64,000 nucleotides of DNA from an uncultured Dehalococcoidia bacterium (GCA_964558415.1 CAZLDI010000016.1:538-64537); one strand, 5' to 3'. Positions 1-48,134 are shown, counted from the first letter of the stretch. Translations and numbers: made by a program. The notes: generated by a model not told the origin, from the letters alone.

Positions 1-526
1 GAGCAAACTCTCCTTCCGCCCATCCCGCGGCGAAGGTACCTATGGCCGTCTCCGTAAACGTCTGCCAGTCCAAGTCTGCCAGTGCAAGGACTCCCTGTAC
101 CACCGGCGACCCGTACCAGTCAGAGGCCCGCGCATACGCGCAACACAGGGCCAGATGAGACACTCTTTCAGGATGACGCGCAGCGTAAGCAATGGCGACT
201 GGACTGCTGTGAAGCGGCGCGTACAGAGCAAACTTTTCAAGTTTGAGGCAGTCTACAACCGCCTCCAGGTCCAGGAGGCGCGCGTCCACCGTGAAATCCG
301 TCACGTCGTGGTCAGAGAGCCCGCCTCCTCTTCCGTCGAAGCGCACCAGCATCCTACCTTCGGCCAGCCGCTCGCGCCAGCGGCGGATCTCAGGGACACG
401 CCACTCCGCCTGCAGATGACTCAAAGGAAACCACGGCAGATGCACCAGCGGCGCACCTTCGCCGATCACGGAATAGGCGATGCTTACGCCATCGCTCGTT
501 GTGGCGTACTGGATGCGCGGCTCCAT
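1..526 (-). CDS. alpha/beta hydrolase fold protein (3' end runs off window start)
   Basis: Manual reverse-strand translation from ATG at 526: [125 protein letters not shown]... This pattern is typical of alpha/beta hydrolases. It is absent from the ORF track because no stop lies inside the window. Confidence 0.6.
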
Positions 527-598
527 GATGCGGCTATTCTACTCCTGTCGGCGTCAGGCGCTGAGCTTGACCCTCGGCGCACACAGAGGTGAGGGGGG

Positions 599-1402
599 TT
601 ACCGTCCGCTGAACTGCGGCTCGCGTTTCTCCATGAACGCCTTCACACCCTCAGCGAAGTCCTTGCTGCCGAACAGCGGCAGCAACTGCAGGAACACGTG
701 GTGTACGCTTGCCTCGAACGACTCCTCCAGGCCCAGGCGCATCATCCGCTTCGTCGCCTGCACCGCCAGTGGCGCGTTGGCCGCGATCTCCGCCGCCATC
801 TCACGCGCTACCGGCATCAACCGCTCGTGCTCGACGACCTGGTTCACAAGCCCGGCAGCCAGCGCCTCCTCCGCGCCCAGCGTCTGCCCACGGAAGGCGA
901 TCTCCGTCGCCTTCGCCCAGCCGACCAGCCGCGGCAGCAGCCACGCGCCGCCGCTCTCCGGCAGGATGCCCCGCTTCGTGAACACCGCCGCCAGCTTGGC
1001 CTCTGTAGAGGCGATACGGATGTCCGCGCCCAGCGCCAGGTCCATCCCGTACCCGGCGGCCGGGCCGTTCAATGCGCAGATCACCGGCTTGTCCGTTGTG
1101 TGCAGCACCACTGGCGGGCTATTGACGAGATCGAACCGCGCCTGCGCCAGCCCACCCGCCCCGTTCGCCCCGATCCCCGTTCCGGCCGTCAGATCTTTCA
1201 GGTCGAGGCCCGCGCAGAAACCGCGACCCGCGCCGGTCAGTATGATCACACGCACCCCTCGGTCGGCGTCGGCGTCGCGAAGCGCCCGGCTGAACGACTC
1301 CAGCATGGGCCCTGTGATCGCGTTCAGCCGGTCCGGGCGGTTCAGGGTAATCGTAGCGACATTGGAGTCGACTTCGTACAGCAGGTCAGCGTATTCAGGC
1401 AT
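599..1402 (-). CDS. enoyl-CoA hydratase/isomerase (crotonase family)
   Basis: 267 aa with [11 protein letters not shown]...[15 protein letters not shown] crotonase motifs. Confidence 0.85.
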
Positions 1403-1562
1403 TGGACACCTCCTGCGGGACAGTTTACCGCGAAGCGCCCGAGAATGCTCGACACCAGCACTTCGCCTCTCCCTTGTAAATCGTCGATGTTCCCGCTACG
1501 CTGAACCCAGATACGGAACCAATCCGCCGCTATCGGCGTTTATTTCCCAGGAGCCGCTCCCT

Positions 1563-2513
1563 TTGGACCATCGAGCAACCGCCCAGCGCATCGCCGAAAA
1601 CGTCGAGCGCGTCATCGTCGGCAAGCGTTCCCAGGTCGAGCTGGCGGTGATGACGCTGATGTGCGGCGGTCACCTGCTGATCGAGGACGTCCCCGGCGTC
1701 GGCAAAACGATGCTCGCGCGCAGCCTCGCGCGCTCCAGCGGCTGCACCTTCAGCCGCATCCAGTTCACTCCGGACCTCCTGCCCAGCGACGTCACCGGCG
1801 TCTCCGTCTACAACCAGAGAACAGGCGACTTTGAGTTCAAGCCCGGACCCGTGCTCTCACAGGTCGTGCTCGCGGACGAGATCAACCGCGCAACACCAAA
1901 AGCGCAGTCTGCTTTGCTGGAGAGTATGGAGGAGCGCCAGATCACGGTTGACGGCGTGACTCACCCCGTGCCGGATCCCTTCATGGTGATGGCGACTCAG
2001 AACCCGATTGAGTACGAAGGCACATTCCCTTTGCCCGAGGCTCAGCTCGACCGCTTCCTCATCCGCCTCGATCTGGGCTACCCGTCGAAGCAGGACGAAC
2101 GCGCCATCATGCAGCGCCAGATGCACGGCCACCCGGTCGGCGAGCTGGCAGAGGTCTGCGAGTCGGGTGACGTCCTGGGACTCCAGGCCGCCGTCCGCGA
2201 GATATACGTCGACATATTGGTCCAGGAGTACATCGTGAATGTCGTCGAGTCGACCCGCAGGCACGACGCCGTATACCTCGGCGCGTCGCCGCGAGGTTCG
2301 CTCGCCCTCCAGCGACTCGGGCAGGCACGCGCGATCCTCGACGGCCGCGACTTTGCGCTCCCTGACGACGTTAAGGCCCTGACCTATCCGGCCCTCGGAC
2401 ACCGGATCATCCTGAACGCCCAGGCCCGGGTGAAGGGCCTGACCCCCCGCGACGTCGTGGAGGACTGCCTGTCGCGCCTGCCGGTCCCCGGGGTGCGGGC
2501 CCGGAGCGCGTAA
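1563..2513 (+). CDS. MoxR-family AAA+ ATPase
   Basis: Walker [15 protein letters not shown] and Walker [10 protein letters not shown], about 317 aa from TTG 1563. The 677 aa track ORF is an N-terminal over-extension overlapping the crotonase gene. Confidence 0.85.
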
Positions 2514-2524
2514 AGAGCCTCCAC

Positions 2525-3811
2525 GTGCGGCGCGCATCACGCGACCTGCGAGACCTCGTCGGCCTTATTCACCGCAATCACAGCCTGCTGCTCGTGCTTG
2601 CGGCCTTCGCTACAACCGTCGCGCTGGCAGCGATCAGCGGGAACTGGTTCTTCTACCGCGGCGCGTACGTTTTGGGCGCGCTTATCCCGCTGTGCCTCAT
2701 CTGGGCCCGCATCAACATCCGCGGCCTGGAAGTGACCGTAGCGCGCGCCAACGACCGGTTACAGGTCGGCCAGGAAGTCGAGGCGCGAGTCCGGCTCCAG
2801 AGTCGCAGCGCTATCACCAAACTGTGGCTCGAAGTCGAAGACGAGACCGACATGCCGGGCGTCCCGCCCCGCACCGTCGTCACCCTGCCGGCGAAAAGCA
2901 GCCGCAACTGGAAAGTGAACATGACGTGCGCTCGCCGCGGCGTCTACTCCACCGGCCCCGTGCGCCTGACCAGCGGAGACCCCTTCGGCCTCTTCCGTTT
3001 CAGCCGCACCTTTGGCGCAAGCGAGACGCTCGTCGTGCTCCCGCGGCCGCAAGAGCTTCCTTATTTCTGGTCGCCCGCTGCTCAACTGCCCGGCGAAGGC
3101 ATCGTGCGCCGCCGCACGCATTACGTGACGCCCAACGCCTCCTCCGTCCGGGAGTACTACCCTGGTGACAGCTACAACCGCATCCACTGGCGCAGCACAG
3201 CCCGCCTGCGCCGCCTGATGGTGAAAACGTATGAGATGGACCCCACGAGCAACGTCTGGATCGTCCTGGACCTCCACCGCGACGTCCAGGCCGGCAGCGG
3301 TGACGACGGCACGGAGGAGTACGCGGTCAGCATCGCGGCTTCACTGGCCTATCACTTCGCGCAGGCCAACCGGATGCTCGGTCTCATCGCCTGCGGACGC
3401 GAAACCGTGGCCATGGATCCGGCTCGCGGCTCCACACAGTACGGTCGTATCCTGGAGGCGCTCGCCACCGCGCGCGCCGAAGGCCCCACGCCGCTGGCGA
3501 GGCTGCTGGAGCAGGAGGGACGGAGGTTTGGGCGTCACACGACTGTGATAGTCGTGACTCCTTCCCCGGACGCAGAATGGACGGCCGCGCTACACACCAC
3601 CGTCCGCCAGGGTGCGCGCGCGGCCGCCGTCCTGCTGGAGCCCGGAAGCTTCGGTCTGGATGGCACCCCCCCACTACCGTTGGAAGAGCTCGCGGCAAGT
3701 AACGTCCTGACTTACGTCGTGCCCTGTGGATCAGACATCTCTCTCATGCTCGGTCCGGCGGGGCTGGCCGCGATAAGTGCGCCCGAGCGGCGCATGGCAG
3801 GGGTGCGCTGA
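2525..3811 (+). CDS. DUF58 (vWA-like) protein, MoxR partner
   Basis: 428 aa with N-terminal TM segments and a central DUF58 region (REYYPGDSYNRIHWRSTARLRRLMVKTYE). It sits immediately downstream of the MoxR gene. Confidence 0.8.
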   Translation: MRRASRDLRDLVGLIHRNHSLLLVLAAFATTVALAAISGNWFFYRGAYVLGALIPLCLIWARINIRGLEVTVARANDRLQVGQEVEARVRLQSRSAITKLWLEVEDETDMPGVPPRTVVTLPAKSSRNWKVNMTCARRGVYSTGPVRLTSGDPFGLFRFSRTFGASETLVVLPRPQELPYFWSPAAQLPGEGIVRRRTHYVTPNASSVREYYPGDSYNRIHWRSTARLRRLMVKTYEMDPTSNVWIVLDLHRDVQAGSGDDGTEEYAVSIAASLAYHFAQANRMLGLIACGRETVAMDPARGSTQYGRILEALATARAEGPTPLARLLEQEGRRFGRHTTVIVVTPSPDAEWTAALHTTVRQGARAAAVLLEPGSFGLDGTPPLPLEELAASNVLTYVVPCGSDISLMLGPAGLAAISAPERRMAGVR

Positions 3812-3812
3812 G

Positions 3813-6365
3813 ATGGCCACTCGCGAGTGGATGAGGCCCATACCCGTGGCGGCGCCGGCGGCGCCACCGCTGACCAGGCGCATCTTCGGCCGCTACGGCG
3901 ACTGGGAGGACTGGCTCACGTTTCTCCTGGCTCTGGGCGCGACTCTCAGCGTATCCGCGTCACTGGAAGCAGGCGGCTGGTCCCAGAATATGCCGCCGCT
4001 TACGCTCGTTTCTGTGCTCGCCCTGCTGGGCGCGCTGATTATCTCGCGTTCCGGTCTGCCCGTCGTCGCCGCCTGGCCGCTGGCAGTTCTCGTTGGGGCG
4101 CTTGTCCTCGGCTGGTTGACGTTAGACGCGGTGGGTCCGGGCGACCTGGAACAGCGTCTGGACGCGGTGTATTACCGGTTTCGGGATTGGTTCCGGCTGG
4201 CCTTTGGCGGTGGCGTGAGCAACGATGATCTGCCGTTCGATACCCTTGTGCTCGGCCTCACCTGGCTCGGTGTCTTTCTGTTCGGTTGGAGCGTCTTTCG
4301 CTGGCACATCTCATGGCTCGGACTGATTCCCGGCGGAGTCGGACTGTTCGTCGACCTCGCCTTCGTGGGCGACGAGCTTTCGGGTTCCATCGCCTTGTTC
4401 ATGCTCTTCGGGTTCCTGCTGGTGATGCGCACGAACCTGATGGTGCGAATGGCGCGCTGGAGGGCAGAGGGAACATCGTACCCACCCCTCATCAGCCTCT
4501 CTTTCATCAACTTCACAGGCTGGGCCCTCCTCGTCGTCATGGCCGGCGCCTGGGTGGCTCCCGTGGGGCCTTTCGCAACGCCCGGCATCGTAAAGGCTGC
4601 GACCGAGGGCATCGCGGAGATCGGGGCCAATTTCGTTCGGCTAGCGGGCCCGCTGGAAGTGAAGAAGGTCGTCCCGGTGCACAGCTACACCGGCGTCCTC
4701 CCCTTCCAGGGCTCCGTCAAGCTAGGCACCCGCGAACTACTGCTCGTCACCGTCAACGAAGAGACGTCGGTGACCGGTCCAATCCCCCTCCGCGGCGCTG
4801 TGTACGATATTTACTCCCCCGGTGGCTGGCAGGCCGGCGAGCGCGTTTCCGTCCAACTGCCGCCGTGGACCGACGAGGAGGTAGACAAGGCAGTCGCCAA
4901 TGGCGACTTGCAAGGAACCGTGATCACGCTAACCGTGCGCGTGGAGCGGAAGAGCGTCGTCGGGACAGTGCTCTTCTCACCCGGGGACACGCTCGCCAGC
5001 AGCTCACACTTCCAGATCGAGGCTGCATCGGACGGCGTCGCCGAAGTGGAACGGAGGGAGGGCCGCCGCGCCAACTTCCTCGTCCCGAACGCGGGCGCCG
5101 AGCTTTCGAACCAGGAGGTGCTTACGGCCGCGGTCGATCAATACCTGAACGGAGACGGGGTGGGGCTCACAGTCCGCAGGGACCCGGACGGGCGCGTCCT
5201 GGGCGTGACGCTTCTGCGCAGCACTACAGGCGTGCCTGATGGCCTCGTGACCAAACCACCACAACGCATCCAGGAAGGTAACACCTACACAGTCACGGGT
5301 TTCATCTCCTCGCCCTCGGCTGAGGAACTCAGACTCGCCGGCAGCGACACCCCTCCGGGTGATTACCTGCAACTGCCTGACGATCTCCCATCACGCATCA
5401 AGGACAGGGCACTGGAGATCATGTGGCTCTCCCCCATAGCCAACGATGATCAGAACCGACTCCTGGCCGCGGGAGGCAGGCCTACACCATACGACACCGC
5501 GAAGGCGATCGAGGACTATCTTCGTCAGTTCCCGGTCGACTTCAACGTGAAGAAGGCGCCGCCCGGCGAGGACGCCGTGGACTATTTCCTGTTCGAGTCG
5601 CAGCGCGGTTACTTTGACTACCACGCTTCGGCCATGGTCGTCATGCTGCGCTCGCTCGGTATCCCCTCCCGCCTCGCGGTCGGTTTCGTCGTGGACGACG
5701 CCGACCGCACTCGCACCGGCGGCCCTTACCTCGTCCGCGACCTCAACGCCTACGCCTGGACAGAGGTCTACTTCCCCGGATATGGCTGGATAGCCTTCAA
5801 CCCCTCACCCGATCGACAGGCGGACCTGCGTCCTGTCGTCTCCGCGGCGCCGGAGCCTGTGGAGCCGCTCGGACCCGAAGACATCCGCGACGTGGGCCTC
5901 GGCGGCGACGCCAATATCGACTTCGGGTTCGAGGGGCTGGGAGGAGGCGGGCCATCAGCGACTACCGGCGGACGGGACTACAACCCCCTGATCACCCTCG
6001 GCGTCCTCAGCGTGATCGCACTGCTCGCCGGATCGGTGTTCCTCGGCTGGCAACGCTCCGTCGCCGGACTCCCCTATTCGCAGCAACTCTGGGAGAAAAC
6101 CGTCCGCCTCGCCGGCTGGGCCGGGCACCCACCGCAACCCGGCCAGACACCACGCATCTACGCTGAGCACATCGAGCGCACGTTCGTAGATACGCGAGGC
6201 GTCCGCGAGCTGGCACGCGCCTATAATCGCTCTCGCTTCGGCAGGCGCGAAGTCGAAGGCGAGGACCGCGAACGAATCCGTGATTCGTGGCCGGACACAC
6301 GGAACGCCCTGCTTCGCGGCATCGTCGGCCGCGTGTTGCGACGACGGCGCGTGACGCCGGAATAA
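3813..6365 (+). CDS. transglutaminase-like domain membrane protein (TgpA-like)
   Basis: Multi-TM N-terminus and a C-terminal transglutaminase core (YFDYHASAMVVMLRSLGIPSRLAVGF...DLNAYAWTEVYFPGYGWIAFNPS). Start moved to ATG 3813, just after the DUF58 stop. It completes a classical MoxR-DUF58-TGase triad. Confidence 0.8.
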   Translation: MATREWMRPIPVAAPAAPPLTRRIFGRYGDWEDWLTFLLALGATLSVSASLEAGGWSQNMPPLTLVSVLALLGALIISRSGLPVVAAWPLAVLVGALVLGWLTLDAVGPGDLEQRLDAVYYRFRDWFRLAFGGGVSNDDLPFDTLVLGLTWLGVFLFGWSVFRWHISWLGLIPGGVGLFVDLAFVGDELSGSIALFMLFGFLLVMRTNLMVRMARWRAEGTSYPPLISLSFINFTGWALLVVMAGAWVAPVGPFATPGIVKAATEGIAEIGANFVRLAGPLEVKKVVPVHSYTGVLPFQGSVKLGTRELLLVTVNEETSVTGPIPLRGAVYDIYSPGGWQAGERVSVQLPPWTDEEVDKAVANGDLQGTVITLTVRVERKSVVGTVLFSPGDTLASSSHFQIEAASDGVAEVERREGRRANFLVPNAGAELSNQEVLTAAVDQYLNGDGVGLTVRRDPDGRVLGVTLLRSTTGVPDGLVTKPPQRIQEGNTYTVTGFISSPSAEELRLAGSDTPPGDYLQLPDDLPSRIKDRALEIMWLSPIANDDQNRLLAAGGRPTPYDTAKAIEDYLRQFPVDFNVKKAPPGEDAVDYFLFESQRGYFDYHASAMVVMLRSLGIPSRLAVGFVVDDADRTRTGGPYLVRDLNAYAWTEVYFPGYGWIAFNPSPDRQADLRPVVSAAPEPVEPLGPEDIRDVGLGGDANIDFGFEGLGGGGPSATTGGRDYNPLITLGVLSVIALLAGSVFLGWQRSVAGLPYSQQLWEKTVRLAGWAGHPPQPGQTPRIYAEHIERTFVDTRGVRELARAYNRSRFGRREVEGEDRERIRDSWPDTRNALLRGIVGRVLRRRRVTPE

Positions 6366-6414: not shown

Positions 6415-7710
6415 ATGACACGCCTCGCGACCGCCCTGACAGACCGCACCGGATTCTTCTACGGTTGGTGGGTTGTCGCCGCTTCCGCCGCCATCGTTTT
6501 CCTGACCGGCGGAACGTTCTTTTACGGCTTCGGCGCGCTCTTCAACCCCATCGTGAACGAGTTCGGCTGGAGCCGCGCCAGCGTATCGTTCGCGTTCTCA
6601 CTGCGCTCCGAAGTGGGCGGCCTCGCCGCCCCGGTAATCGGCTTCACGGTAGACCGCTTCGGTGCGCGCCGGCTGATGATGACCGGCGTTCTTCTGGTCG
6701 CGCTGGGCTTCGTTCTCCTGAGCAAGATTGAGTCGCTGGCCGGGTTCTACGGCGCGGTGATCGTCATCGCGATCGGCATGAGCGCGACCGGTGGCCCGAT
6801 AGGGATGGTGGCGATCACCCACTGGTTCCACAGGCGGCGCGGCCGCGCTCTGGCGGTGATGACCGTCGGGGCGGGTGCCAGCGGTGTGATGGTGCTCGTC
6901 CTCTCAGCGTTGATCTCCGCGTTTGGCTGGCGAGACGCATTGGTGATCATCGCCGCGCTGCAGGTAATCATCTGCCTGCCCCTCGCAGCCAGCGTCCGCA
7001 ACCGGCCGGAGGAGATGGGGCTGCAGCCGGACGGGGAGGCACCCCCGCGCGCCGACGAGCTTTCAACGGCCGGCGCGCGCGTCCGAGACGCACACTGGGG
7101 TCTCACGGTTCGCGAGACGTTGCGAACCAGCACCTTTTGGAAGCTCTCCTTCGCTGTAATGCTGGCCAACCTGGGCACCACGGCGATCATCGTCCATCAG
7201 ATCCCGTTCCTCACGTCAACGGTTGGCTTCTCCGACGGCCTTGCGGCCGCTTCCGTGGCGATAATGACCTTGCTTAGCCTCATCGGGCGACTCGGCTTCG
7301 GACAGTTAGCGGACGTGATGGACAAGCGGCACGTCATGGCCGTGGCGTTCGCCATCTCGGGACTCTCCCTGCTGCTCTTCGCGACGGTCTATGAGAGCTG
7401 GCAGGTACTGTACGCTCTCCCTCTGTTCGCCATCGGCTTCGGCGGCGCGATCCCCGTCCGGCCGGCGCTTCAGGCTGACTACTTCGGCCTCAGGGCGTTC
7501 GGAGCGATACAGGGCCTCACGTTCGCGATAGCCACGATTGGCGTCCTTCTCGGGCCGGTCTTCGCCGGTTGGGTGTATGACGAGACGAACAGCTACAGGA
7601 CGGCGTTTGTCGTTCTCTCCCTGTGTTCGCTGCTGGCCGCTCCGCTCATCCTGACGACCCGCACGGCCGCCGGGCAGCCGCCCGCTCCGCTCAGTACTGT
7701 TCCAGACTAA
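6415..7710 (+). CDS. MFS transporter
   Basis: 431 aa with about 12 predicted TM helices in two halves and a central cytoplasmic loop. Confidence 0.8.
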   Translation: MTRLATALTDRTGFFYGWWVVAASAAIVFLTGGTFFYGFGALFNPIVNEFGWSRASVSFAFSLRSEVGGLAAPVIGFTVDRFGARRLMMTGVLLVALGFVLLSKIESLAGFYGAVIVIAIGMSATGGPIGMVAITHWFHRRRGRALAVMTVGAGASGVMVLVLSALISAFGWRDALVIIAALQVIICLPLAASVRNRPEEMGLQPDGEAPPRADELSTAGARVRDAHWGLTVRETLRTSTFWKLSFAVMLANLGTTAIIVHQIPFLTSTVGFSDGLAAASVAIMTLLSLIGRLGFGQLADVMDKRHVMAVAFAISGLSLLLFATVYESWQVLYALPLFAIGFGGAIPVRPALQADYFGLRAFGAIQGLTFAIATIGVLLGPVFAGWVYDETNSYRTAFVVLSLCSLLAAPLILTTRTAAGQPPAPLSTVPD

Positions 7711-9731
7711 GGAAGGTAGGCCACCGGGTCCACTGGCGATCCGTTGATCCACATCTCGAAGTGCAAGTGCGTCCCCGTGGACGCGCCGGCGCACCCGAGC
7801 CCTCCGACACGCTCCGAGGTCAAGACTTTCTGACCTTCGGAGACGTATATCTCCGAGAGATGCGCGTATATCGTCTGTGATCCGTCGCCGTGCGTGATAC
7901 GGACATACCTGCCGAAATCGCGGTCGTCGTAGCTTACCGTGTCCACTACACCCGAGGCGGCAGCCAGAACAGGCGCTCCGTAGTAGCCGAGGCCGCCCAC
8001 GTCGATCGCCCCGTGGATGTAGCCCGGGCGCTCCTCACCGAAACCGCTCGTGATCGGACCGTAGAACGGCCAGACATAGCCCGTGGACGACGGTACGTGC
8101 ATCGCCTTGTAGCCGCTCAACTCCTGAATGAACGCCGATGCGGGAACACCCCCTGGGATCAGAATTCGCATATCATCGTCGAGCTCGTCTGCTGAGCTCA
8201 GGTGATTGCCCGGGTACGCGACAATGTCGTCTGGATCGGCGCTGTAGGTCGCGGCGATCCCCTCAACGGTCTCGCCGGGCTCAACCTCATGGATGATCCC
8301 CGCTACCCCCGGCAGAAGTAGCCTGCGGCCTACCAGTAACCTGTCGTCAATGCCGTAGTCCGGATTATTCCAGAGGATGTGGTCCGGGCAAACGTCGAAC
8401 TCTTTGGAGATGGACATCAAGCTATCGCCGGACTTGATCGTGTAGGAGAAAAACGCCGGTGCCCTCACGCCGAAACGCATTGGTGCCGCGGACGGAGTGG
8501 GTGTGGGGGCAATGAACGCGAACACCGGCGCCGCAGAGGGGGTCGGCGCGGGCGTTTCGCTCACCACGGTCTCGAGGACGGCGGGAGAGTGAAGGTAACC
8601 CAGTACCGCCTGCTGCGAATCTACCCCATAGGCTTCCGCCGTTGGCCCTTCGCCCCCTCCCGCGCTTCGGACTCCAAGGCCGGCTGCCAGCATTAGTGAC
8701 AGGCCGAAAAACAGAACGTGAAGCAGATAGCGCTGGACGGATGGACGCCTTGGCTGGTCTGAACCGGCATCATCGCTACGCAGCTCAGCCGCCGTTCGAA
8801 TCACCGTGGGTTTCTCAATATCGGGTACTTCTTCTTCGTTGCGGACGGTGCGGACAACCACTGGCGCCAAGTCCGGTTCTTCGTCGGTGCCGGGGGTTGG
8901 CGGAAGCGGCGCATCCGCAGCGGGGGTGCCAATGGATTGCTGCGGAGGCTCGTTCGCGGCCTCGGGCGAAGGCTGGGTGCGCGGGCTATCACTTATTTCC
9001 GAATCCGCGGTGTATTCCAGAGGACCCGCGTCTGGTGGCGTGGGTCCTGGCTCCGCCGTGGCCGCAGCCGTCGCCTGCCCCGTATCTGACACCGCCCCAG
9101 GCGGTAACGACGCATCGGCCGGCGCAGCATCTACTCGCACAACCACTGCGTCTGAGCGCTCCACCGTCGCGGCCGCTTCGGCCTCCGGCTCCGGCTCCCT
9201 CGGAGCCCCGGCCACAATGGTGAGGCCCAATCTCCTTCCGATATCAGTCACATCACCCAGGAGTTCTGCTATCGGTATATCTTCGACTTCGGACGCCAGA
9301 CTTCCCTCTTGGGCTTCCTCCTTCGCGTCTCGGAACAGGTCCAGCAGGTCGTCGCCCAGCGCATCATTGGACTCAATGCTGAGTCCCACCAGTGCGTCCA
9401 GCGGCGACGTCATCGCCTGTTCTTTAGCAGGGTCCGCCGCGCTCTGCGCCCCGGGCTCAAGCGCGGTGGCTGCCGGCGGCGTTTCCACCGAGGGGTCGTG
9501 TATCCTACCGACTTCCGTCAGCGCCTCGAGAGGGTCCGGTACCACCTCCGGCAGGGTAGGTGGCTCATCAAGCGACACCGGAGCGACTGGCTCAGTCGTC
9601 GCTTCCCGGCGCGCGCGCGCCTGTGCCATCACCTGCTCCCGTGCCAGAAGCAACTGGTCACCCGCCTCAGACTTGGCAGGCCCGCCATTCGGCGACGCCT
9701 TCTTGAAGGGAAGTATCCTCGGAAGTCTCAT
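7707..9731 (-). CDS. M23 family peptidase with LysM domain and long N-terminal Pro/Ala/Glu-rich region, single TM
   Basis: C-terminal M23 motifs (HGAIDVGG...GTHLHFEMWINGSPVDP) and LysM (YTIKSGDSLMSISKEF). TM segment YLLHVLFFGLSLMLAAGLGV. The start codon is 7 nt downstream of the flaJ stop, with GGAGGG inside the flaJ 3' end. The true start could lie further downstream. Confidence 0.75.
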   Translation of the reverse strand: MRLPRILPFKKASPNGGPAKSEAGDQLLLAREQVMAQARARREATTEPVAPVSLDEPPTLPEVVPDPLEALTEVGRIHDPSVETPPAATALEPGAQSAADPAKEQAMTSPLDALVGLSIESNDALGDDLLDLFRDAKEEAQEGSLASEVEDIPIAELLGDVTDIGRRLGLTIVAGAPREPEPEAEAAATVERSDAVVVRVDAAPADASLPPGAVSDTGQATAAATAEPGPTPPDAGPLEYTADSEISDSPRTQPSPEAANEPPQQSIGTPAADAPLPPTPGTDEEPDLAPVVVRTVRNEEEVPDIEKPTVIRTAAELRSDDAGSDQPRRPSVQRYLLHVLFFGLSLMLAAGLGVRSAGGGEGPTAEAYGVDSQQAVLGYLHSPAVLETVVSETPAPTPSAAPVFAFIAPTPTPSAAPMRFGVRAPAFFSYTIKSGDSLMSISKEFDVCPDHILWNNPDYGIDDRLLVGRRLLLPGVAGIIHEVEPGETVEGIAATYSADPDDIVAYPGNHLSSADELDDDMRILIPGGVPASAFIQELSGYKAMHVPSSTGYVWPFYGPITSGFGEERPGYIHGAIDVGGLGYYGAPVLAAASGVVDTVSYDDRDFGRYVRITHGDGSQTIYAHLSEIYVSEGQKVLTSERVGGLGCAGASTGTHLHFEMWINGSPVDPVAYLP

Positions 9732-9738
9732 CGGCTTG

Positions 9739-11304
9739 TTATTGACCCTCCGGCGGAGCCAGCGTGTCGGAGAACATCATTTGCGCCAGGGGCGGCACGC
9801 CCATCAGCAATAGTCCGCTCGTTATGAGCGTTAGCCCGCCGAACAGCGCTACCTTGTATGAGTGGCCACCTGATGCCGCCTTCGGTGCGAAGGCATTGAT
9901 CGCTGTAAGAGCAAGGATCACGCCGATTACCATCATCCTGATGAATCCCGTATCAAACGACTGGAACGAAAGCGCGCCCGGTATGCCGATGTCCTCCGGC
10001 CTGATCGTGGAAGCGTTCTCGGTGTTGGCGATCGCCTGCGCTTCCACAAGCTTCACATTGAACGCGCTGACGACTTCGCTCACGAAGACCATCGTGCCGA
10101 TCAGCGCCACGTGCATAGGAATGACCACATAGTTGAATGTCGATGCCACGAGCTTCCGCTTCGCCCTCAACAACCACACTCTCAATGCCATGTCTGAGGA
10201 GAATCGCCCAACCTTCTCAGGCTCGCCGCCCCAGTCGTTGCCATCCCAGAATGCGCGTACGGTCCTGTGCACCAGTTCACTACCCGTCTCCGCCATGAAC
10301 CGGCTCCAGCACAACCCCGTGTTAATACCGCAGGCCACCCGCTTCAGCAGGTTTATCAGCTCTGGCTCCAGGGAACCGATGGCGCGCGCGTCGATGTGAC
10401 CGAGGCTCTCTATCACCGTGCTGCCACGAGCGGCCGTAACACCGCCCAGCGCGCGCAGGAAGTCCGCGATATCGCGGTCCCGAGCGTCTATCTTCTGTTC
10501 GAGGAGGGTCGTGGTGACGCCCACGGGCAGTACGATGATGCCGGCGACGATAAGCGCAAGGCCCATGCTGCCCAGGACGCCAAAGGTGACAAGACCTACC
10601 AGCAGCGCCGTCGGAAGCAGAATCCTTGCCATCTTCGTCATGCGCTTCTGTTCCTCCGACCTGTGTTCCAGCTTGTGGACCACGGGGTCATAGGGAGCTA
10701 TCCGGTAGATCAGGTACGCCCCCATCGCTGCCGCTAAGATCGCCACCAGTTCCACCACAACCATGAACAGCAACCCCAGGTTGTAGATCATGTTGGAGAT
10801 CAGCGCCACGAGGACAATTAGGTTGCAGGACACCATCAACGCCACAAAGGCATCGGTCCATTTGCGTAGCGCCTCTATCGCCCGCTCGTACTCGTTCGTA
10901 TAGTCGTCCATCATTACCTGTGTCTCGCGCGCCAGGAAGACCGTCTCGGGCTCGCCGGAGGCCATTGAGTTACCGAAGCGCAGAAGGAACTGACGCATGA
11001 CCTCGTCCTTTGTCGTCTTTGAGACGACGTGGCACGCGTGAGAGTAGTCGTAGCCCAGGCTCTGGACCAGGTTCGCCACCCGCGCGAAGTACGGTGACGG
11101 CAGGTAACCCAGCTCCGAGGCGCTGTCGAAAATCTGCTCGCGGCTCAGGTTGGCCGTGGAAACGGACGAAAGATACGTCAGGACAGTGAGCAGGTCGAAC
11201 TGGCTCTGGTTCATGTCAAGAAGCATGGAGTTCTTGACGGCAGACAGAGCCGGGGACCGGCCGGAGCCGATGGGGGTACTAGAAGAGTCCTTGTTTCCTG
11301 GCAT
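9739..11304 (-). CDS. flaJ: archaellum membrane platform protein FlaJ-like (double T2SSF/TadC-like domains)
   Basis: 521 aa polytopic membrane protein with two repeated T2SSF-like halves. It sits immediately downstream of a FlaI-like ATPase. An alternative start at 11226 avoids the 26-nt overlap with flaI. Confidence 0.75.
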   Translation of the reverse strand: MPGNKDSSSTPIGSGRSPALSAVKNSMLLDMNQSQFDLLTVLTYLSSVSTANLSREQIFDSASELGYLPSPYFARVANLVQSLGYDYSHACHVVSKTTKDEVMRQFLLRFGNSMASGEPETVFLARETQVMMDDYTNEYERAIEALRKWTDAFVALMVSCNLIVLVALISNMIYNLGLLFMVVVELVAILAAAMGAYLIYRIAPYDPVVHKLEHRSEEQKRMTKMARILLPTALLVGLVTFGVLGSMGLALIVAGIIVLPVGVTTTLLEQKIDARDRDIADFLRALGGVTAARGSTVIESLGHIDARAIGSLEPELINLLKRVACGINTGLCWSRFMAETGSELVHRTVRAFWDGNDWGGEPEKVGRFSSDMALRVWLLRAKRKLVASTFNYVVIPMHVALIGTMVFVSEVVSAFNVKLVEAQAIANTENASTIRPEDIGIPGALSFQSFDTGFIRMMVIGVILALTAINAFAPKAASGGHSYKVALFGGLTLITSGLLLMGVPPLAQMMFSDTLAPPEGQ

Positions 11305-13000
11305 TTCCCAGTACCCTGTACAGTTCGTAGAAGTCAGAGATGTTGGACGATTTGTGTAGCTTCTCCAGCACCTTCGCCCGCCGGTCTATCTCCTGGTAGA
11401 TGCGGCGACGCTGGTTCGGTGGGATTCCGCGCGCCGGTGCCACCTTGTTCTCCAGCAAATAGCTGTTCATGTAACCCGTGAACTCGTGGACATCCGTGAT
11501 TGGGTCCCAGTGGAACGTCTCGGCATACGAGAACGAATCGGTTACGGAGTCGTAGCCGAACAGCTCGTTGATCGAAAGAATTCGCCGCCCCACCTTGCCG
11601 TTCGGCAGCTTGACGGCGCTGGCGATGACCACGAGGTTCAGGTTATCGATGTAGGACTTCGGGACGCTGATCGGTGCAGCCGTCACACGCTGTATCAGCT
11701 TCTCCACCGTAGCCGCGTGGAACGTCGCCATCACAGCATGGCCGGTCTGCATAGCCTGGAACGCGATATTCCCCTCTTCGCCGCGGATCTCACCAACGAT
11801 GATCTCGTTAGGCCGCTGCCGCAGCGCCGCTTTCAACAGGTCGAACATGGTCACGCTGGCCGCTTCGCCGGCCGCTCCACGTACCACTTCTCGTAGCCAG
11901 TTCGGATGCGGGACCTGCACCTCTGGCGTGTCCTCCACCGTCACAATTTTGGCGCCCGCATCAATGAACGTGGTCAGCGCATTGAGCAGCGTCGTCTTGC
12001 CTGATGCCGTCTCTCCGGAGACCCACATGTTCATGCCCTCTTCAATCATGATCGAGAGGTAGGCGATCATCTGGTACGTGCAGGCGCCGCCGGCAACAAC
12101 GTCCATCACGCTCAGGGGCGTCGCGGTGAACTTGCGGATCGTAAAGTTGCTGCCCCGCTTGGAGACCTCTTCGCCGTAGACTATGTTCACGCGCGAACCG
12201 TCCGGCAGGGTTGCGTCGACGATCGGTTTTCGGTAGGTGACCGGCTTGTTGATGCGCTCCGAGGTGCGCCGCAGGAACGCGTCAAGGTCGTCATGCTTGT
12301 CGAAGATGATCGCGGACTTGAGCGCCTTCAGCACCTTGTGCTCGATGAAGACCGGTCCCAGTCCCGCGCAGCTAATGTCCTCAATATTCGGGTCCAGGAT
12401 CAGCGGCTGCAGGATGCCCAGGCCAACCTTGTCTCGCAGCAGCAGATAGCGCACCGCGTCCAGGTCTACCTGCCCCAGCGTCATGCGGGAACCCCGTCGC
12501 GGCTTTTTCCAGCCGCTATCTGCGGGACGCAGGCTCCCATCGCTCCCTACCGTGACTACGCGGTCCAGGGCGTTCAAGAGGACCTCTCGCTGCTCTTCAT
12601 TGTTCTCCGGTTGGTGATACTTGTGCACGGCGTCCACCAACAGCTCTTCGACGATCTCCATGAGCGAGTCGTAGTCGCTGAGGATCGTCGGCTCAATCGG
12701 GATGTAGTAGTTGCGCGCGTCGTGCGCGTCCGCCAGGATGTGCGCAAAGGTAGCGTTGCCAACTGGATAGATGAGGTTCGGGGACTCGTTCGCCCCCGCC
12801 TTCCGGTCCAGCTTTGCGTGGTATTCCGGCGAACCCGTCTCGGCCACTGGAAGCGTGTGCAGGTAACGTCGCAGGTGCGCGTGCTCATCAACCAGTTCAC
12901 GCAGCTCAGCGGGAAGCGGCCCGCAGACGGCGCAGCTCGAGGAGACATGCGAGCCGTCCGACCAACCGATGTCCGGGAAGGGTAACGCAACGTACGGCAT
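11279..13000 (-). CDS. flaI: archaellum ATPase FlaI-like (type II/IV secretion ATPase superfamily)
   Basis: 573 aa with Walker A GETASGKTTLLNAL, Walker B/Asp box IIVGEIRGEE and His box TGHAVMATFHA. Length and N-terminal domain fit archaeal FlaI rather than the shorter bacterial CpaF/TadA. Confidence 0.85.
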   Translation of the reverse strand: MPYVALPFPDIGWSDGSHVSSSCAVCGPLPAELRELVDEHAHLRRYLHTLPVAETGSPEYHAKLDRKAGANESPNLIYPVGNATFAHILADAHDARNYYIPIEPTILSDYDSLMEIVEELLVDAVHKYHQPENNEEQREVLLNALDRVVTVGSDGSLRPADSGWKKPRRGSRMTLGQVDLDAVRYLLLRDKVGLGILQPLILDPNIEDISCAGLGPVFIEHKVLKALKSAIIFDKHDDLDAFLRRTSERINKPVTYRKPIVDATLPDGSRVNIVYGEEVSKRGSNFTIRKFTATPLSVMDVVAGGACTYQMIAYLSIMIEEGMNMWVSGETASGKTTLLNALTTFIDAGAKIVTVEDTPEVQVPHPNWLREVVRGAAGEAASVTMFDLLKAALRQRPNEIIVGEIRGEEGNIAFQAMQTGHAVMATFHAATVEKLIQRVTAAPISVPKSYIDNLNLVVIASAVKLPNGKVGRRILSINELFGYDSVTDSFSYAETFHWDPITDVHEFTGYMNSYLLENKVAPARGIPPNQRRRIYQEIDRRAKVLEKLHKSSNISDFYELYRVLGNARKQGLF

Positions 13001-13007
13001 CTCTGCA

Positions 13008-13922
13008 TCAAGCTTTTGTCTTGGATATCGGGATGCTCTTCAGCCCCAGCCCGGTGGCAACGCTGAAGCTAACGGAGTTGCCCACCGTCTTTGTAGCGCC
13101 GCGGATCTTGGACACCTCCAGCGTCCGCACCACCTGACCGCCCAGCTCCTCAATGCTCAACTTCAAGTGCGCGTCCACAATGGAGCCGGCGCGCAGGCGC
13201 AGGGATTCGTTAATCGCGTAGGAGTGCAGCGTCACGATGATCGTCCGTCCCAGCTCCGCCAGCTCCTTGCACGTCGCCAGAAATGACAGGACGAACCGAG
13301 CGTCGAACTGAAAGAGAAGCGGCGTGATGGAGTCCACAATCAGCAAGTCATACTTGTCGCCCTTCTCCACGAATTTGAGCAGATTCCGCGTCATCTGCTC
13401 CGCGCGTTCCTGGTCGACGCGCAAGTTTGATTGAAAGAGCGAGAGCCGGCCGACCAGATAGTAGTCCATTACGGGCATGCCCAGGGTCTCCATGGAATCC
13501 ATGAGCTCCCGCGCCGTGCATTCCGAAAGAAATACGCCCGCCCTCAAGCCCTCCTTTAGCGCCCCGTACATGAGCTGCTGCACAACAACGCTCTTACCGG
13601 CTTCTGGATCTCCCTCCACCAGGGTGACTGTGTTCAGCGAGAGGCCGCCCCCCAGCTTCTTGTCCATATCCATGACGCCCAGGGCTATGACCCGCGGTAT
13701 GGCCTCTTCGGGCTCTTCCTCCTCGGACATCTCATCGTCCGCCTCCGCGTGACTCTCAAGTCCCGCCATAGGGTCCGGCGCTGGGGCCACATCCCCCTCA
13801 GAAGCGACCGGAGGCTGAGTCAGCTCCGCCAGCGGGTCAGGAACGGGGGCCACCTCAGGCGCCGTATCAGCAACCGCAGTCGCGCCGGGCGTCAGGAGTT
13901 CGGTTGTGGCTTCAGCTTCCAT
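13008..13922 (-). CDS. flaH: FlaH-like RecA/KaiC-family ATPase with acidic N-terminal extension
   Basis: Walker A GDPEAGKS, Walker-B-like LLIVDSITPL, KaiC/RecA-like core of about 230 aa. It is preceded by about 75 aa of Pro/Ala/Glu/Asp low-complexity sequence. Its position directly upstream of flaI is as in archaella operons. Confidence 0.75.
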   Translation of the reverse strand: MEAEATTELLTPGATAVADTAPEVAPVPDPLAELTQPPVASEGDVAPAPDPMAGLESHAEADDEMSEEEEPEEAIPRVIALGVMDMDKKLGGGLSLNTVTLVEGDPEAGKSVVVQQLMYGALKEGLRAGVFLSECTARELMDSMETLGMPVMDYYLVGRLSLFQSNLRVDQERAEQMTRNLLKFVEKGDKYDLLIVDSITPLLFQFDARFVLSFLATCKELAELGRTIIVTLHSYAINESLRLRAGSIVDAHLKLSIEELGGQVVRTLEVSKIRGATKTVGNSVSFSVATGLGLKSIPISKTKA

Positions 13923-13940
13923 TCCTCAATCCGCTCCAGA

Positions 13941-14444
13941 TCAGAAGTAGACCGTGTATGAAACACCGGTATCGGATGTCAGCACGAACCAGCGGTCGGC
14001 GCTCGCCACCGTTGCCGGGCCAAGCTGTATGCGGATCGTCATCAATTCGCCGGTGTCCAGCTTGCCGGGGTTGCGGGCGTCCGGCGCGATCGCCGTGATC
14101 GTCCACGTGTTATCCGGCTGGATCGCGTCCTCCGTGTAGGGCAGCCACGTGCTGTGGCGCTGCAGGTCCGCACCGTTGTAACTGATTATCATGTCCATGT
14201 GGGCGAAGTCCTCCAGCACTGTCCTCCCGTCGTTCGCGACGACTGCGGTCACATCCACGCCGGTCGCGCCCACCACACTGGAGACGACCGACAGGTCTGT
14301 GCCGAGGCGCTCTTCAGAGATCGCCTCCATCTCGCGCCACGACTCGTTCACCGTGGTCAGCGAATTATGCGTTACATCCGCGATCAACACCCCTGCCAGG
14401 ACCATGATCGCTGCGATGAGAAGCGCGGGAATCGTGTGTTCCAC
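13941..14444 (-). CDS. flaG: FlaG-like archaellum accessory protein (N-terminal TM + beta-rich domain)
   Basis: 167 aa with N-terminal hydrophobic helix MEHTIPALLIAAIMVLAGVLIA. Size and position (between the flaF-like gene and flaH) match euryarchaeal flaF-flaG. Assignment is by synteny and architecture only. Confidence 0.5.
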   Translation of the reverse strand: MEHTIPALLIAAIMVLAGVLIADVTHNSLTTVNESWREMEAISEERLGTDLSVVSSVVGATGVDVTAVVANDGRTVLEDFAHMDMIISYNGADLQRHSTWLPYTEDAIQPDNTWTITAIAPDARNPGKLDTGELMTIRIQLGPATVASADRWFVLTSDTGVSYTVYF

Positions 14445-14453
14445 AACAGTAAC

Positions 14454-14957
14454 CTAAAGCGAAAACGTCCTACTGGCCGTGATACCGTTGGGCAGCACGA
14501 TGGTGCTGATGTAGTCGGTCCCGGCGGCCAGGTTGTAGTCCAGATAAACGGTGATTCGGAGCGTCGCGAAGGGCGTCCACTCCGTGTCGTTCTCAAGTTG
14601 GTATTGCCAGCAGGGTTCAGTCCGTGGCGGTGGCACCGGATTAGGGCACGTTGGCAAACTGTCATAGTCGATGCGTTCGAAGGCATCGACCTCTCCGAAG
14701 AAAACGTCGATCTTGTTCAGCGACGGTATGTTGATCGCGCCAACGTTCTTCGCCCAGATCTGGACACTGTCCTGTCCATCGATGCCGGCCGTCTCAATGA
14801 CCTTGACATCACTCCGCAGGCGCGTGCCCACAACGTCGCTCGCGGCCACGATGTCGCTGCTCGTCCGCTGGATAGCCGGCAAGACGGAGTTGATCACGAC
14901 CACCGTCGCTACGATCGCCGCGATCATTAGCAGCAGGGAGGTTATGACCTTGTCCAC
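14454..14957 (-). CDS. flaF: FlaF-like archaellum accessory protein (N-terminal TM + beta-rich domain)
   Basis: 167 aa with N-terminal helix MDKVITSLLLMIAAIVATVVVINSV. It is a paralog-like neighbour of the FlaG-like gene. Assignment is by synteny only. Confidence 0.5.
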   Translation of the reverse strand: MDKVITSLLLMIAAIVATVVVINSVLPAIQRTSSDIVAASDVVGTRLRSDVKVIETAGIDGQDSVQIWAKNVGAINIPSLNKIDVFFGEVDAFERIDYDSLPTCPNPVPPPRTEPCWQYQLENDTEWTPFATLRITVYLDYNLAAGTDYISTIVLPNGITASRTFSL

Positions 14958-14998
14958 GACTTACCTCCAGTTGTCCGGGCCGTGGGGGCATGATCGAT

Positions 14999-15736
14999 TC
15001 AGAGCGAGGCCAGCCTGTCGAGGTCCTGCATGACCTTGATCCAGGCAAGCCTTTCTTCGTCAGATGTCTTGAGCAGTTCCTGCAAGTGGGCGAGGGCGCG
15101 AATGATGTTGGGGGGAAGCGCGCCCCAGAGTCTGTGCATCGCGATCACATGCTCAAGATTCTCAGCGCCGATCGTCGCTAACGCCTCCGTCACCCAGGAC
15201 GACAGACTGGCGCCCGCGGTTATCGGCGGCAGGTTCGCCATGTACATCGTTGGTATCTCCGTATCTAGTGCAGGCCGATCGAACTCAGGCTCGGAGCGCC
15301 TCTTCCGGCGACCCGCAGCGGCTGCCGCCTCGCGGTCGGACTGCCTTGACCCGGCGGCGTCGCGAGGATCACCTGATTCGGGCGCGTCCTCAATCAGCGG
15401 CGCGTCCGCTCCCTCCGCCACCGCAACCGGATTCGCGTCCACCGTCGCAACGCCTGTCTCCGCCTCGTCAATTCCCAGCGCGGAAGCGGGTATCGTCTTG
15501 GTGTTTGCCGGCGCCGAATCGGCGGCAGTCGCCGCCTCGTGAGCAGCAACCTCGGAGGCCATGGCGCGCGCCGTCGTATTCAGGTCCATGCGGATGAACG
15601 CTGACTGGTTGTCTTCGCCCAGAGGGTTCACCTTCTCCAGGACGACCTCACGGATATCGAGGAGGACATTGCGTATCTCCGCCTTGAGGACCTTTAACTC
15701 GTCCTCCAGCTCTTTGATCTTCGCGTTGACTTCCAT
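14999..15736 (-). CDS. putative FlaC/D/E-like archaellum accessory protein (coiled-coil N-term, Ala-rich linker, conserved C-terminal domain)
   Basis: 245 aa with N-terminal coiled coil EVNAKIKELEDELKVLKAEIRNVL and a low-complexity linker. The C-terminal block (...MYMANLPPITAGASLSSWVTEALATIGAENLEHVIAMHRLWGALPPN) is reminiscent of the FlaD/E domain. Its position is between the archaellins and the flaF-like gene. Confidence 0.4.
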   Translation of the reverse strand: MEVNAKIKELEDELKVLKAEIRNVLLDIREVVLEKVNPLGEDNQSAFIRMDLNTTARAMASEVAAHEAATAADSAPANTKTIPASALGIDEAETGVATVDANPVAVAEGADAPLIEDAPESGDPRDAAGSRQSDREAAAAAGRRKRRSEPEFDRPALDTEIPTMYMANLPPITAGASLSSWVTEALATIGAENLEHVIAMHRLWGALPPNIIRALAHLQELLKTSDEERLAWIKVMQDLDRLASL

Positions 15737-15762
15737 GGCCTGAGCTGCTCCTGATTCAGGCC
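15737..15762 (-). promoter_or_regulatory. stem-loop (7 bp stem GGCCUGA/UCAGGCC) abutting the start codon of the FlaD/E-like gene, with the SD (AGGAG) in the loop
   Basis: Inverted repeat GGCCTGA(15737-15743)...TCAGGCC(15756-15762) lies between the archaellin array and the accessory genes. There is no U-tract. Confidence 0.4.
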
Positions 15763-15811
15763 CCGATTACGCCCCTACCATTTGGTGGCTCGTCGGGGGC
15801 GCCATCAAGGA

Positions 15812-16402
15812 CTAGTGAAGGTCCATTACCAGATCGATCGACGGAGGCATCGTGCGGTTGATAAGCAGCGTGCCGCCCTGCGGAGGAACGACTTCCAGAG
15901 TGAATATCTCGTTGGCGACGAGAGTGGAGGCTGCTGGAGGAGCAACGTTGATCTCGAATAGCTCCCCGTTCTCCAGCAGATCGTCGGCGTCGCCCTGGAT
16001 CTTGAGGACGGTGTACGTAGCGTCAGCCACGCGCGCCTGCGCATCGATGTAGTTGATGATGACCGAGTTCGTCGCGGCAGCCGGGTCGACCAGGACCGGG
16101 AAGCCGCCGGCGGCGTTCGCCAGATTGAACTCGATGTTGTCAAGAGTGGTGATCGTGCCACTGGCGTTAGTGTCCGTGACCGTGAGTGCACCGCGGACTT
16201 CGAGGTTGCCGCGGGCCTTCTCCAAACCGGCGAAGACGGTCTCCTTGCCGCGCTCAGCGCTGAACAGACCGGTGCTGAGGACCACGAAGGCGAACACCGA
16301 GGCCACGATGACGAACGCGATCAGGATGATCGCCGTCTCCAGACCGGTGATGCCCTCTTCTTTCTTGTGCAGGCTGCCAAACAGCCGCGTAAGCCTCGAC
16401 AT
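15812..16402 (-). CDS. flaB: archaellin (archaeal-type flagellin), paralog 4
   Basis: 196 aa. Class-III signal peptide (MSRLTRLFGSLHKKEEG|ITGLE) followed by a hydrophobic N-domain (TAIILIAFVIVASVFAFVVLSTGLFSAERGKETVFAGLEKARGN). Compare Methanococcus FlaB [36 protein letters not shown]. Confidence 0.85.
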   Translation of the reverse strand: MSRLTRLFGSLHKKEEGITGLETAIILIAFVIVASVFAFVVLSTGLFSAERGKETVFAGLEKARGNLEVRGALTVTDTNASGTITTLDNIEFNLANAAGGFPVLVDPAAATNSVIINYIDAQARVADATYTVLKIQGDADDLLENGELFEINVAPPAASTLVANEIFTLEVVPPQGGTLLINRTMPPSIDLVMDLH

Positions 16403-16435
16403 TCTGTTACCCCTTCCTGCCTGTGGGCCCGTGAC

Positions 16436-17026: not shown

Positions 17027-17063
17027 TTGTTACCCCTTCCTGTGTTCCGTGAGCGTGTGTGAC

Positions 17064-17654: not shown

Positions 17655-17686
17655 GTATTACCCCCTCTCGCCTGTGAGCGAGTGAA

Positions 17687-18801: not shown

Positions 18802-18937
18802 TTTTCGTTACGTCGATTTCGCACATTGATGAAGGAATGAGAAGTGTGACGCGCGTCACTGTCTGGGGCCGCTGCGGTGCTTTAGGATATGGGCGCAATT
18901 TGAGCAAGCGCCCGAATAGTGGGCAGGAGATCCTACC

Positions 18938-46230: not shown

Positions 46231-46232
46231 GC

Positions 46233-48124: not shown

Positions 48125-48134
48125 GCGCGCTCCA

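Follow-up and report, generated by a model that had tools for sequence, protein, structure and literature searches.

A candidate motor-tethered LysM-M23 wall endopeptidase encoded at the end of a bacterial archaellum operon

How is an archaeal motor installed in a bacterium whose wall contains murein? The question is raised by an archaellum operon of an uncultured Dehalococcoidia bacterium (GCA_964558415.1, CAZLDI010000016.1:538-64537), lying in a stretch of 64,000 nucleotides (nt) that was analysed at its full length and is called the window below. It was only in 2025 that archaella were shown to function in bacteria. The literature on them that we searched makes no mention of an M23 peptidase, an amidase or another hydrolase; the only published link between a bacterial archaellum and peptidoglycan is PilO-LysM with PilN in Litorilinea aerophila, present in 3/244 genomes (PMC12488501, PMC13319060), and archaellum anchoring in most murein-containing lineages is stated to be unknown (PMC13319060). 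In the window the operon ends with a gene (7707..9731, minus strand) for a protein of 674 amino acids (aa) that combines a cytoplasmic motif, one transmembrane (TM) helix, two LysM domains and an M23 metallopeptidase domain. The original prediction saw in it a peptidoglycan hydrolase recruited to the archaellum to breach the wall. We consider it probable, though far from certain, that the product is a motor-tethered wall anchor and endopeptidase, a fusion protein that ends an acquired archaellum operon.

The fusion gene is the last of eleven co-directional genes; these, and all features of its product, lie on the minus strand. It starts exactly 7 nt past the stop of arlJ/flaJ, which encodes the membrane platform protein (9739..11304; NCBIfam NF004703 ArlJ/FlaJ, E 1.1e-129; more than 100 homologues annotated FlaJ), the spacer being CAAGCCG (9732..9738). 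This spacing had been noted beforehand, and the accompanying claim that the gene terminates the operon also holds up: a predictive scan found no terminator-like or promoter-like site at the arlJ junction, the 7-nt gap included, and beyond the fusion gene the operon is bounded by a convergent MFS transporter gene (6415..7710, plus strand; PF07690, E 1.7e-43). The stops of these two convergent genes overlap by 3 nt and the end coordinates of their open reading frames (ORFs) by 4 nt (7707-7710), leaving zero intergenic room for a terminator between them. Over 7000-19000 promoter and terminator counts were at or below shuffle expectation, and a sigma-70-like match inside the fusion gene (8391-8364) was rejected as chance, one having been found against 2.3 expected. 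From the 245-aa gene at the arlCDE position (below) through the fusion gene, intergenic spacing stays between -26 and +41 nt, and we infer co-transcription. The Shine-Dalgarno (SD) sequence that the original prediction placed inside the arlJ 3' end is present (GGAGGG, 9746..9751; anti-SD duplex energy -10.0 kcal/mol), but GGAGG(G) stands 14-15 nt before the ATG, against ~4-5 nt in the archaellin genes of the same operon. Translational coupling to arlJ through re-initiation across the 7-nt gap is plausible. The start codon is backed by an N-terminus common to eight homologues, MK/RLPRLLPF.

The outward part of the protein has the make-up of a wall enzyme. Its M23 (LytM-type) domain occupies aa 548-674 (7710..8090; PF01551, E 2.9e-24), with the Peptidase_M23 match at aa 583-669 scoring 85.5 bits vs a gathering cutoff of 28.7. 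The active-site set is complete, comprising HxxxD (H573, D577), H624 and HxH (H655, H657), and these zinc and catalytic residues are invariant in 9/9 aligned sequences whose overall identity is only 40-45%. In the full-length AlphaFold2 (AF2) model, where the mean predicted local distance difference test score (pLDDT) is 45 and only the M23 and LysM parts are usable, aa 550-674 form a beta-sheet fold at pLDDT 70-94. The best Foldseek match of this part is StM23 (9gy1; E 1e-11, rmsd 1.9 A over 122 columns, 38% identity), an active hydrolase, followed in order by DipM, EnpA, EnvC, LytM, lysostaphin and ShyA; phmmer against the PDB gave E 1.9e-18. The active site is complete and the domain apparently an active wall-cutting enzyme. 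Pfam found no glucosaminidase, muramidase or SLT domain in the protein at E <= 0.01.

Some LytM-type domains, such as those of EnvC, NlpD, ActS and DipM, activate an amidase or other autolysin without cutting, and the structural matches to the LytM domains of DipM and EnvC might suggest such a regulatory factor here. NCBIfam likewise returns weak matches, of which DipM (88 vs an equivalog cutoff of 740), NlpD (48 vs 311) and EnvC (25 vs 270) fall below their cutoffs, as do MepM (65 vs 341) and ShyA (57 vs 700), with ActS a further weak match; other clades, moreover, pair the archaellum operon with an amidase. The regulatory kind is, however, defined by degenerate metal-binding sites; the window protein has the full HxxxD, H and HxH set, unvaried across the alignment, and a degenerate LytM factor was rejected on that ground. 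Nor does the window's archaellum operon contain an amidase gene. We regard a regulatory role as very improbable.

Inward of the M23 domain lie two LysM domains, at aa 428-474 (8310..8450; PF01476, E 1e-7, 32.2 bits vs a cutoff of 20.9, with the Pfam match spanning aa 430-474) and, more divergent, at aa 478-527 (8151..8300; PF01476, 19.2 bits alone vs the same cutoff of 20.9). Both are beta-alpha-alpha-beta in the AF2 model, and Pfam finds two LysM stretches in the homologues of loci L006, L007 and L011. A linker rich in Ala, Pro, Gly and Thr (aa 358-427; 8451..8660; pLDDT <50) connects them to a single TM helix at aa ~335-357 (8661..8729; hydropathy maximum 2.15 at aa 336), near which AF2 predicts a helix at aa 330-349. 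Arg residues (RR and R) flank the TM helix on its N-side, and the N-terminal 334 residues are therefore predicted to be cytoplasmic. The single membrane helix that had been proposed is borne out, and so is the placing of LysM and M23 outside it, except that the LysM count is two and not one. Residues 1-334 fit the disordered Pro/Ala/Glu-rich cytoplasmic region of ~330 aa that had been described in composition (A 15.6%, P 13.5%, E 10.5%, D 8.4%; net charge -36) as well as topology, but this region also holds two conserved elements. One is a basic N-terminal peptide, MRLPRILPFKK (9699..9731), in which M1 and F9 are invariant in the homologue alignment; the other is a motif of ~45 aa at aa ~120-172 (9216..9374), DDLLDLFRDAKEEAQEGSLASEVEDIPIAELLGDVTDIGRRLG, recognised by its invariant residues and by a motif hidden Markov model (HMM).

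In a nine-sequence alignment the invariant residues of the motif are L129, D131, F133, R134, D135, A136, K137, E139, G143, L145, E148, I154, L157, L168 and G169, and the block at aa ~112-169 reads LLDxFRDAKxExxxGxLxxExxxxxIxxL...LG. Its family-wide pattern is D-L-L-x-I-F ... D-V/I-x3-D/E-L-L; AF2 predicts two helices at low confidence, and neither Pfam nor NCBIfam has a family covering it. Nor did the whole protein or its N-terminal 183 aa give a Pfam match to PilO or PilN, even at E <= 1. The loci in which we traced the motif come from species-representative genomes scanned with an ArlJ alignment; they number 80, almost all in metagenome-assembled genomes of Dehalococcoidia or Chloroflexota, and were analysed with HMMs built for this purpose. 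One record among them, L014, is labelled Acidobacteriota. The motif occurs in the ORF directly 3' of arlJ at 66/81 loci (58 by iterated HMM and eight by eye), and the window protein itself matches the iterated HMM at aa 128-168 with E 3.2e-15. Two motif proteins found from sequence alone, P0143 and P0145, are also encoded directly after arlJ.

At most loci the motif forms the C-terminus of a small acidic protein of ~130-180 aa with a basic N-terminal peptide and an acidic linker, encoded directly 3' of arlJ (e.g. L006:6563-7003, L035:5662-6069, L066:11576-11995 and L067:11479-11886). These stand-alone proteins start MKLFRLRRK, MRFLNRLLK or MAMFTKNK, resembling the basic peptide of the window protein. 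At some loci one or two N-terminal TM helices precede the motif, and in every arrangement (soluble, TM-motif or motif-TM) it is predicted to be cytoplasmic. At L015:11372-12214, L016:11524-12630 and L017:10235-11149 the motif ends a protein of 280-368 aa in which two TM helices surround an external beta-rich domain of ~120 aa; Pfam has no match for that domain. A word-indexed search with the motif alignment returned only nine short Chloroflexi hypothetical proteins and is not informative on archaeal arl loci; the archaellum literature searched makes no mention of the small protein. By its sequence, then, the motif is a previously undescribed, archaellum-specific cytoplasmic motif, and on the same comparisons the N-terminus of the window protein is homologous to the small arlJ-downstream protein. 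The gene therefore joins an archaellum-specific part to a wall-directed one in a single fusion.

Eight homologues share the architecture of the window protein (E 1e-99 to 1e-126). The fused protein is found at L001, L002, L004, L005 and L077, whose ArlJ is 70-75% identical to that of the window, and in four homologues that were individually looked up (L081-L086), making 10 genomes with the window. In 10/10 genomes with readable context the fused gene lies 1-11 nt past arlJ or overlaps it by 1-11 nt, the gaps in the homologous loci being -11, -4, -4, -1, +7, +8, +9, +11 and +11; the conserved linkage to arlJ that had been named as a check is thus observed. Downstream, 7/7 genomes with enough sequence have either a gap of at least 75 nt to the next same-strand ORF or a convergent gene as the next one called. 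Could a housekeeping wall hydrolase simply have come to adjoin the operon by chance? M23 and LysM proteins are common in bacteria, the LysM/M23 profile drawing matches to 157,664 library proteins at E <= 0.001. Against chance stand the synteny across 10/10 genomes with gaps of -11 to +11 nt, the fusion to an arlJ-associated motif, and the placing of the M23 genes that a broadened M23 HMM detected in 1.27 Mb of loci, 10/10 of which lay beside the archaellum cluster and none in the flanks. We consider this explanation close to refuted. Among 1.84 billion representative proteins the full architecture forms 14 clusters, a figure obtained with a 602-position profile into which sequence weighting had drawn the LysM/M23 columns; generic LysM-M23 proteins dominate its matches, so that it reports full-architecture clusters and not motif occurrence outside Chloroflexota.

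A sister clade shows what happens to the parts of the fusion. In a neighbour-joining (NJ) tree of ArlJ (midpoint-rooted, without support values, and used only to set module types against clades), the sister of the window's clade, with ArlJ 65-68% identical to the window's, carries proteins that keep the motif, the TM helix and both LysM domains and have no M23 domain. At L006 the LysM-only ORF ends '...SSPIWP*', its stop falling inside the WPFYGP start of M23, and what follows the stop in frame, YGPLTSHYSDRRGGNPHRVAI, is WPFYGPITSGFGEERPGYIHGAID in decayed form, the M23 remnant extending over ~25 codons (L006:7960-8060). M23 was therefore lost and LysM retained, and anchoring appears to be the function that this clade has kept.

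The protein may accordingly be mainly a wall anchor, with the LysM pair tethering motor or stator to murein and M23 an optional extra. The flagellar stator is fixed by the peptidoglycan-binding domain of MotB; archaeal ArlF and ArlG hold the S-layer instead. Besides the M23 loss and the decayed remnant at L006, this explanation gains from the PilO-LysM fusion near the L. aerophila archaellum genes, which has been proposed as an anchor (PMC12488501, PMC13319060). It does not explain why the M23 catalytic residues are invariant in nine divergent sequences of the window's clade, a pattern that speaks for a selected enzymatic function, or why the largest clade of loci has an amidase whose catalytic residues are intact but lacks LysM. 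The persistence of LysM after the loss of M23 in the sister clade makes a predominantly anchoring role a serious rival, one that is compatible with a combined anchor and endopeptidase and partly complementary to it; as the principal function we find it rather unlikely.

That largest clade belongs to a wider pattern. Among 70 loci with enough 3' sequence, 38 have a peptidoglycan module within two genes of arlJ. At 25 of them, all in one ArlJ clade, the module is an Amidase_3 protein anchored by an N-terminal TM helix (E about 1e-30, H/E/H/E intact), encoded second past arlJ, after the motif gene (e.g. L035:6075-7103, L023:5915-6943 and L041:4893-6170). M23 follows arlJ at eight loci, six of them fused, the window included, and two (L019 and L021) with a separate TM-X-M23 gene in the order arlJ, motif gene, TM-M23; five loci have the motif-TM-LysM x2 form without M23. 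Orthologues of the L019/L021 type occur at L033:2542-3762 and L038:3081-4310, on the same strand and ~1.3 kb upstream of arlB. The middle domain of these TM-X-M23 proteins, ~170 residues in L033 and L038, has no Pfam match, and a degenerate Amidase_3 in the L019/L021 proteins was considered and dropped, the amidase HMM giving no match at 1e-5.

The remaining loci have other genes after arlJ and the motif gene. At 11 loci, which form one ArlJ clade, the motif gene precedes a hybrid kinase with PAS, HisKA, HATPase and receiver domains, sometimes with more response regulators (L049:11901-13538, L072:11563-13152, L070:6861-8426, L087:6213-9432), and this kinase may be a dedicated archaellum control module. 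Eight loci, a Dehalococcoidales-type clade, encode a TM-plus-motif protein followed by 510-600-aa membrane proteins with Ig-like (TIG/Big) domains and terminal TM helices (L037:12095-13642, L050:12424-13971, L060:12111-13865, L064:12259-13797), which are possible partners spanning the envelope in lineages perhaps devoid of murein. The other 13 loci, L033 and L038 among them, have another module or none. Module type follows ArlJ clade in the NJ tree.

Amidase_3 and LysM-M23 proteins are also classical septum splitters, and the best NCBIfam matches in these families are DipM, MepM, CwlD and AmiA. The enzymes might therefore serve cell separation or pole maturation, splitting septal murein to free motile cells or poles while being co-expressed with motility; L. 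aerophila bears its archaella at remodelled poles that arise after filament breakage (PMC13319060). A general septal role would, however, leave unexplained the fusion to a motif otherwise found only beside arlJ, and all NCBIfam scores are far under the equivalog cutoffs, as with DipM. We judge it improbable, and, like the regulatory factor and chance adjacency, less likely than the readings in which the protein serves the archaellum.

Any of these roles in the wall presupposes murein in the host. The window encodes a D-alanyl-D-alanine carboxypeptidase (Peptidase_S11; 43066-44247, E 4e-54), so a murein wall is likely, and the strict conservation of LysM and M23 residues implies that a wall substrate is present. 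Peptidoglycan synthesis is encoded by 235/244 archaellated Chloroflexota (PMC13319060), and some Dehalococcoidia, such as SAR202 isolates, are without peptidoglycan (PMC10444878). We conclude that this host likely makes murein.

The architecture of the protein, its intact catalytic motifs, its operon position, the synteny and the recurrence of other wall enzymes at the same position are established. The mechanism that we favour would run as follows. A peptidoglycan-containing bacterium of Dehalococcoidia type within the Chloroflexota would have acquired the archaellum operon horizontally. The small acidic arlJ-downstream protein of nearly all related operons would have become residues 1 to ~180 of a fusion whose second part comprises the TM helix, the flexible linker, the two LysM domains and the M23 domain with its complete active site. 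We infer that the cytoplasmic motif docks on the archaellum motor, on ArlJ, ArlI, ArlH or the ArlCDE-like protein, which would place the fusion protein at the basal body. There the LysM pair would grip the murein directly above it and the M23 domain, if active as predicted, would cut peptide cross-links locally, such that filament and stator could pass the wall and be held in it. An assembly or anchoring role of this kind keeps the earlier idea of an archaellum-recruited wall enzyme, which synteny, motif fusion and the other wall enzymes at this position support; the 'breaching' part of that idea is only one of several live mechanisms.

Several observations weigh against so specific a picture. 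The wall module goes undetected in 32/70 loci, where hybrid histidine kinases or Ig-like membrane proteins may follow the motif gene, and the motif protein therefore seems to have a function independent of wall enzymes. The amidase clade has a separate enzyme, with a TM helix belonging to it alone and no fusion to the motif, so that the link there is only operonic. The sister clade, as we read its sequences, shows that hydrolysis is not needed in every lineage. The N-terminal half of the window protein, which would do the docking, is modelled at pLDDT <50, and the GGAGGG of the fusion gene is a poorly spaced SD. In many bacteria, moreover, type IV filament machines of related kind are not known to use a dedicated hydrolase when they cross the murein.

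The recurrence of the motif beside such different modules leads us to a broader suggestion, which we offer tentatively, as possible rather than probable. The motif together with the basic peptide may be an unrecognised, possibly bacteria-specific component of the archaellum, a universal adaptor that would dock on the cytoplasmic motor and couple it to whatever envelope module suits the wall of the lineage. It would recruit M23/LysM or Amidase_3 enzymes where there is murein, Ig-like proteins in Dehalococcoidales-type lineages, and hybrid histidine kinases for control.

Dedicated wall-lytic enzymes are familiar from other machines: FlgJ, SltF and PleA in flagella, VirB1 in type IV secretion systems, and IpgF and EtgA in type III secretion systems. 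They embody the same idea of a lytic enzyme that serves to bring a motility or secretion machine through murein (for a review, PMC6403190), but these are glycosidases or lytic transglycosylases that are secreted or periplasmic, whereas the window protein has an M23 domain and its machine would be an archaellum. TagX, encoded in the type VI secretion system cluster of Acinetobacter, comes closer in layout: it is an L,D-endopeptidase of the LAS metallopeptidase superfamily, anchored in the inner membrane, and like the window protein it is encoded in the cluster of a trans-envelope machine with its catalytic domain outward of a TM segment (PMC5061870). It differs in being of VanY/Ply500 type and not M23, in having neither LysM nor a cytoplasmic adaptor motif, and in serving a type VI secretion system in a diderm; its activity and the wall-crossing requirement were shown by experiment (PMC5061870), whereas for the window protein both are predictions. 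PrgK of the enterococcal pCF10 type IV secretion system is likewise a machine-dedicated wall enzyme, in a monoderm, with an extracellular LytM/M23 domain (PMC11323569). Its targeting to the machine goes through a partner, PrgL, and it cuts with a muramidase domain, the LytM domain being degenerate and free of metal (PMC11323569). For the window protein, targeting by a fused cytoplasmic motif is proposed, and M23 is intact and the sole catalytic domain.

PilO-LysM with PilN of L. aerophila is alike in placing LysM on a bitopic membrane protein near arl genes; it differs in its rarity (3/244 genomes), its position upstream of the locus, its PilO base and its lack of an enzyme (PMC12488501, PMC13319060). 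The window protein has no similarity to PilO, carries another motif as well as M23, and is the cistron after arlJ. The growth and division proteins MepM/YebA, ShyA and DipM share with it LysM or LysM-like domains, a C-terminal M23 domain and in part a TM helix, with similarity over the C-terminal 260 aa, but they are without the ~330-aa cytoplasmic region that holds the arlJ-associated motif, and none is encoded in a motility operon. By analogy, the window protein would be akin in role to enzymes of the FlgJ, VirB1, TagX and PrgK kind and stands outside all their families.

The rest of the operon, read from arlJ backwards, consists of arlI/flaI for the ATPase (11279..13000; PF00437 T2SSE, E 4.9e-37), which overlaps arlJ by 26 nt; arlH/flaH for a KaiC-like protein (13008..13922; PF06745, E 5.3e-19); the stator genes arlF (13941..14444; weak NCBIfam ArlF match, E 1.8e-4) and arlG (14454..14957; PF01917 archaeal flagellin-like, E 4.1e-7); the 245-aa protein at the arlCDE position (14999..15736); and four tandem archaellin (arlB) genes (15812-16402, 16436-17026, 17064-17654 and 17687-18277; PF01917, E 2.8e-21). 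An assignment of 14454-14957 as arlF and 13941-14444 as arlG was reversed after the NCBIfam ArlF match and in view of the published arl2 order, arlG then arlF (PMC12488501). The position of arlG is conserved in all loci. The 245-aa protein has no Pfam or NCBIfam family match, and homologues stand at the same position in 10 of the 11 loci inspected, with no match found in L038. At L035:3529-5646 arlJ comes right after the stator genes, and the locus shows neither an ArlH nor an ArlI match in between; archaellum gene order thus varies.

The flanks of the operon (480-6365 and 18938-21190) encode MoxR AAA+, DUF58, transglutaminase, MFS and MMPL transporter proteins; they are shared with L085 (GCA_040960315.1), where the wider neighbourhood is syntenic. 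Three consecutive genes at 21780-24380, for a C5 cytosine methyltransferase, an EcoO109I-like restriction endonuclease and an HhH-GPD glycosylase, have a third-codon-position GC content (GC3) of 0.63-0.67 vs ~0.8 in the neighbours and were probably acquired as a restriction-modification island. The gene at 39887-41329 specifies a membrane glycosyltransferase that matches GT87 and is ALG6/ALG8-like; O-glycosylation has been reported for the L. aerophila archaellins. A long cluster of catabolic genes on the minus strand (44295-59305) has among its products a P450, a TetR regulator, acyl-CoA dehydrogenases, an enoyl-CoA hydratase, an acyl-CoA ligase and several thiolase-like proteins. Neither an Rfam nor a tRNA scan of the window gave a match.

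For the archaellated Chloroflexota, these loci supply operon-encoded candidates for a task on which the published record held PilO-LysM and PilN: a motor-tethered LysM-M23 protein, a TM-anchored amidase and a small motif protein that nearly always follows arlJ. The installation of an archaeal motor in a murein wall becomes a directly testable question, and a comparative framework is gained because module type tracks the ArlJ clade. If the motif is indeed an adaptor, the gene in the window would be the fusion that reveals the partnership between adaptor and envelope module, and it would show an archaeal rotary motor retrofitted to a bacterial wall after cross-domain transfer.

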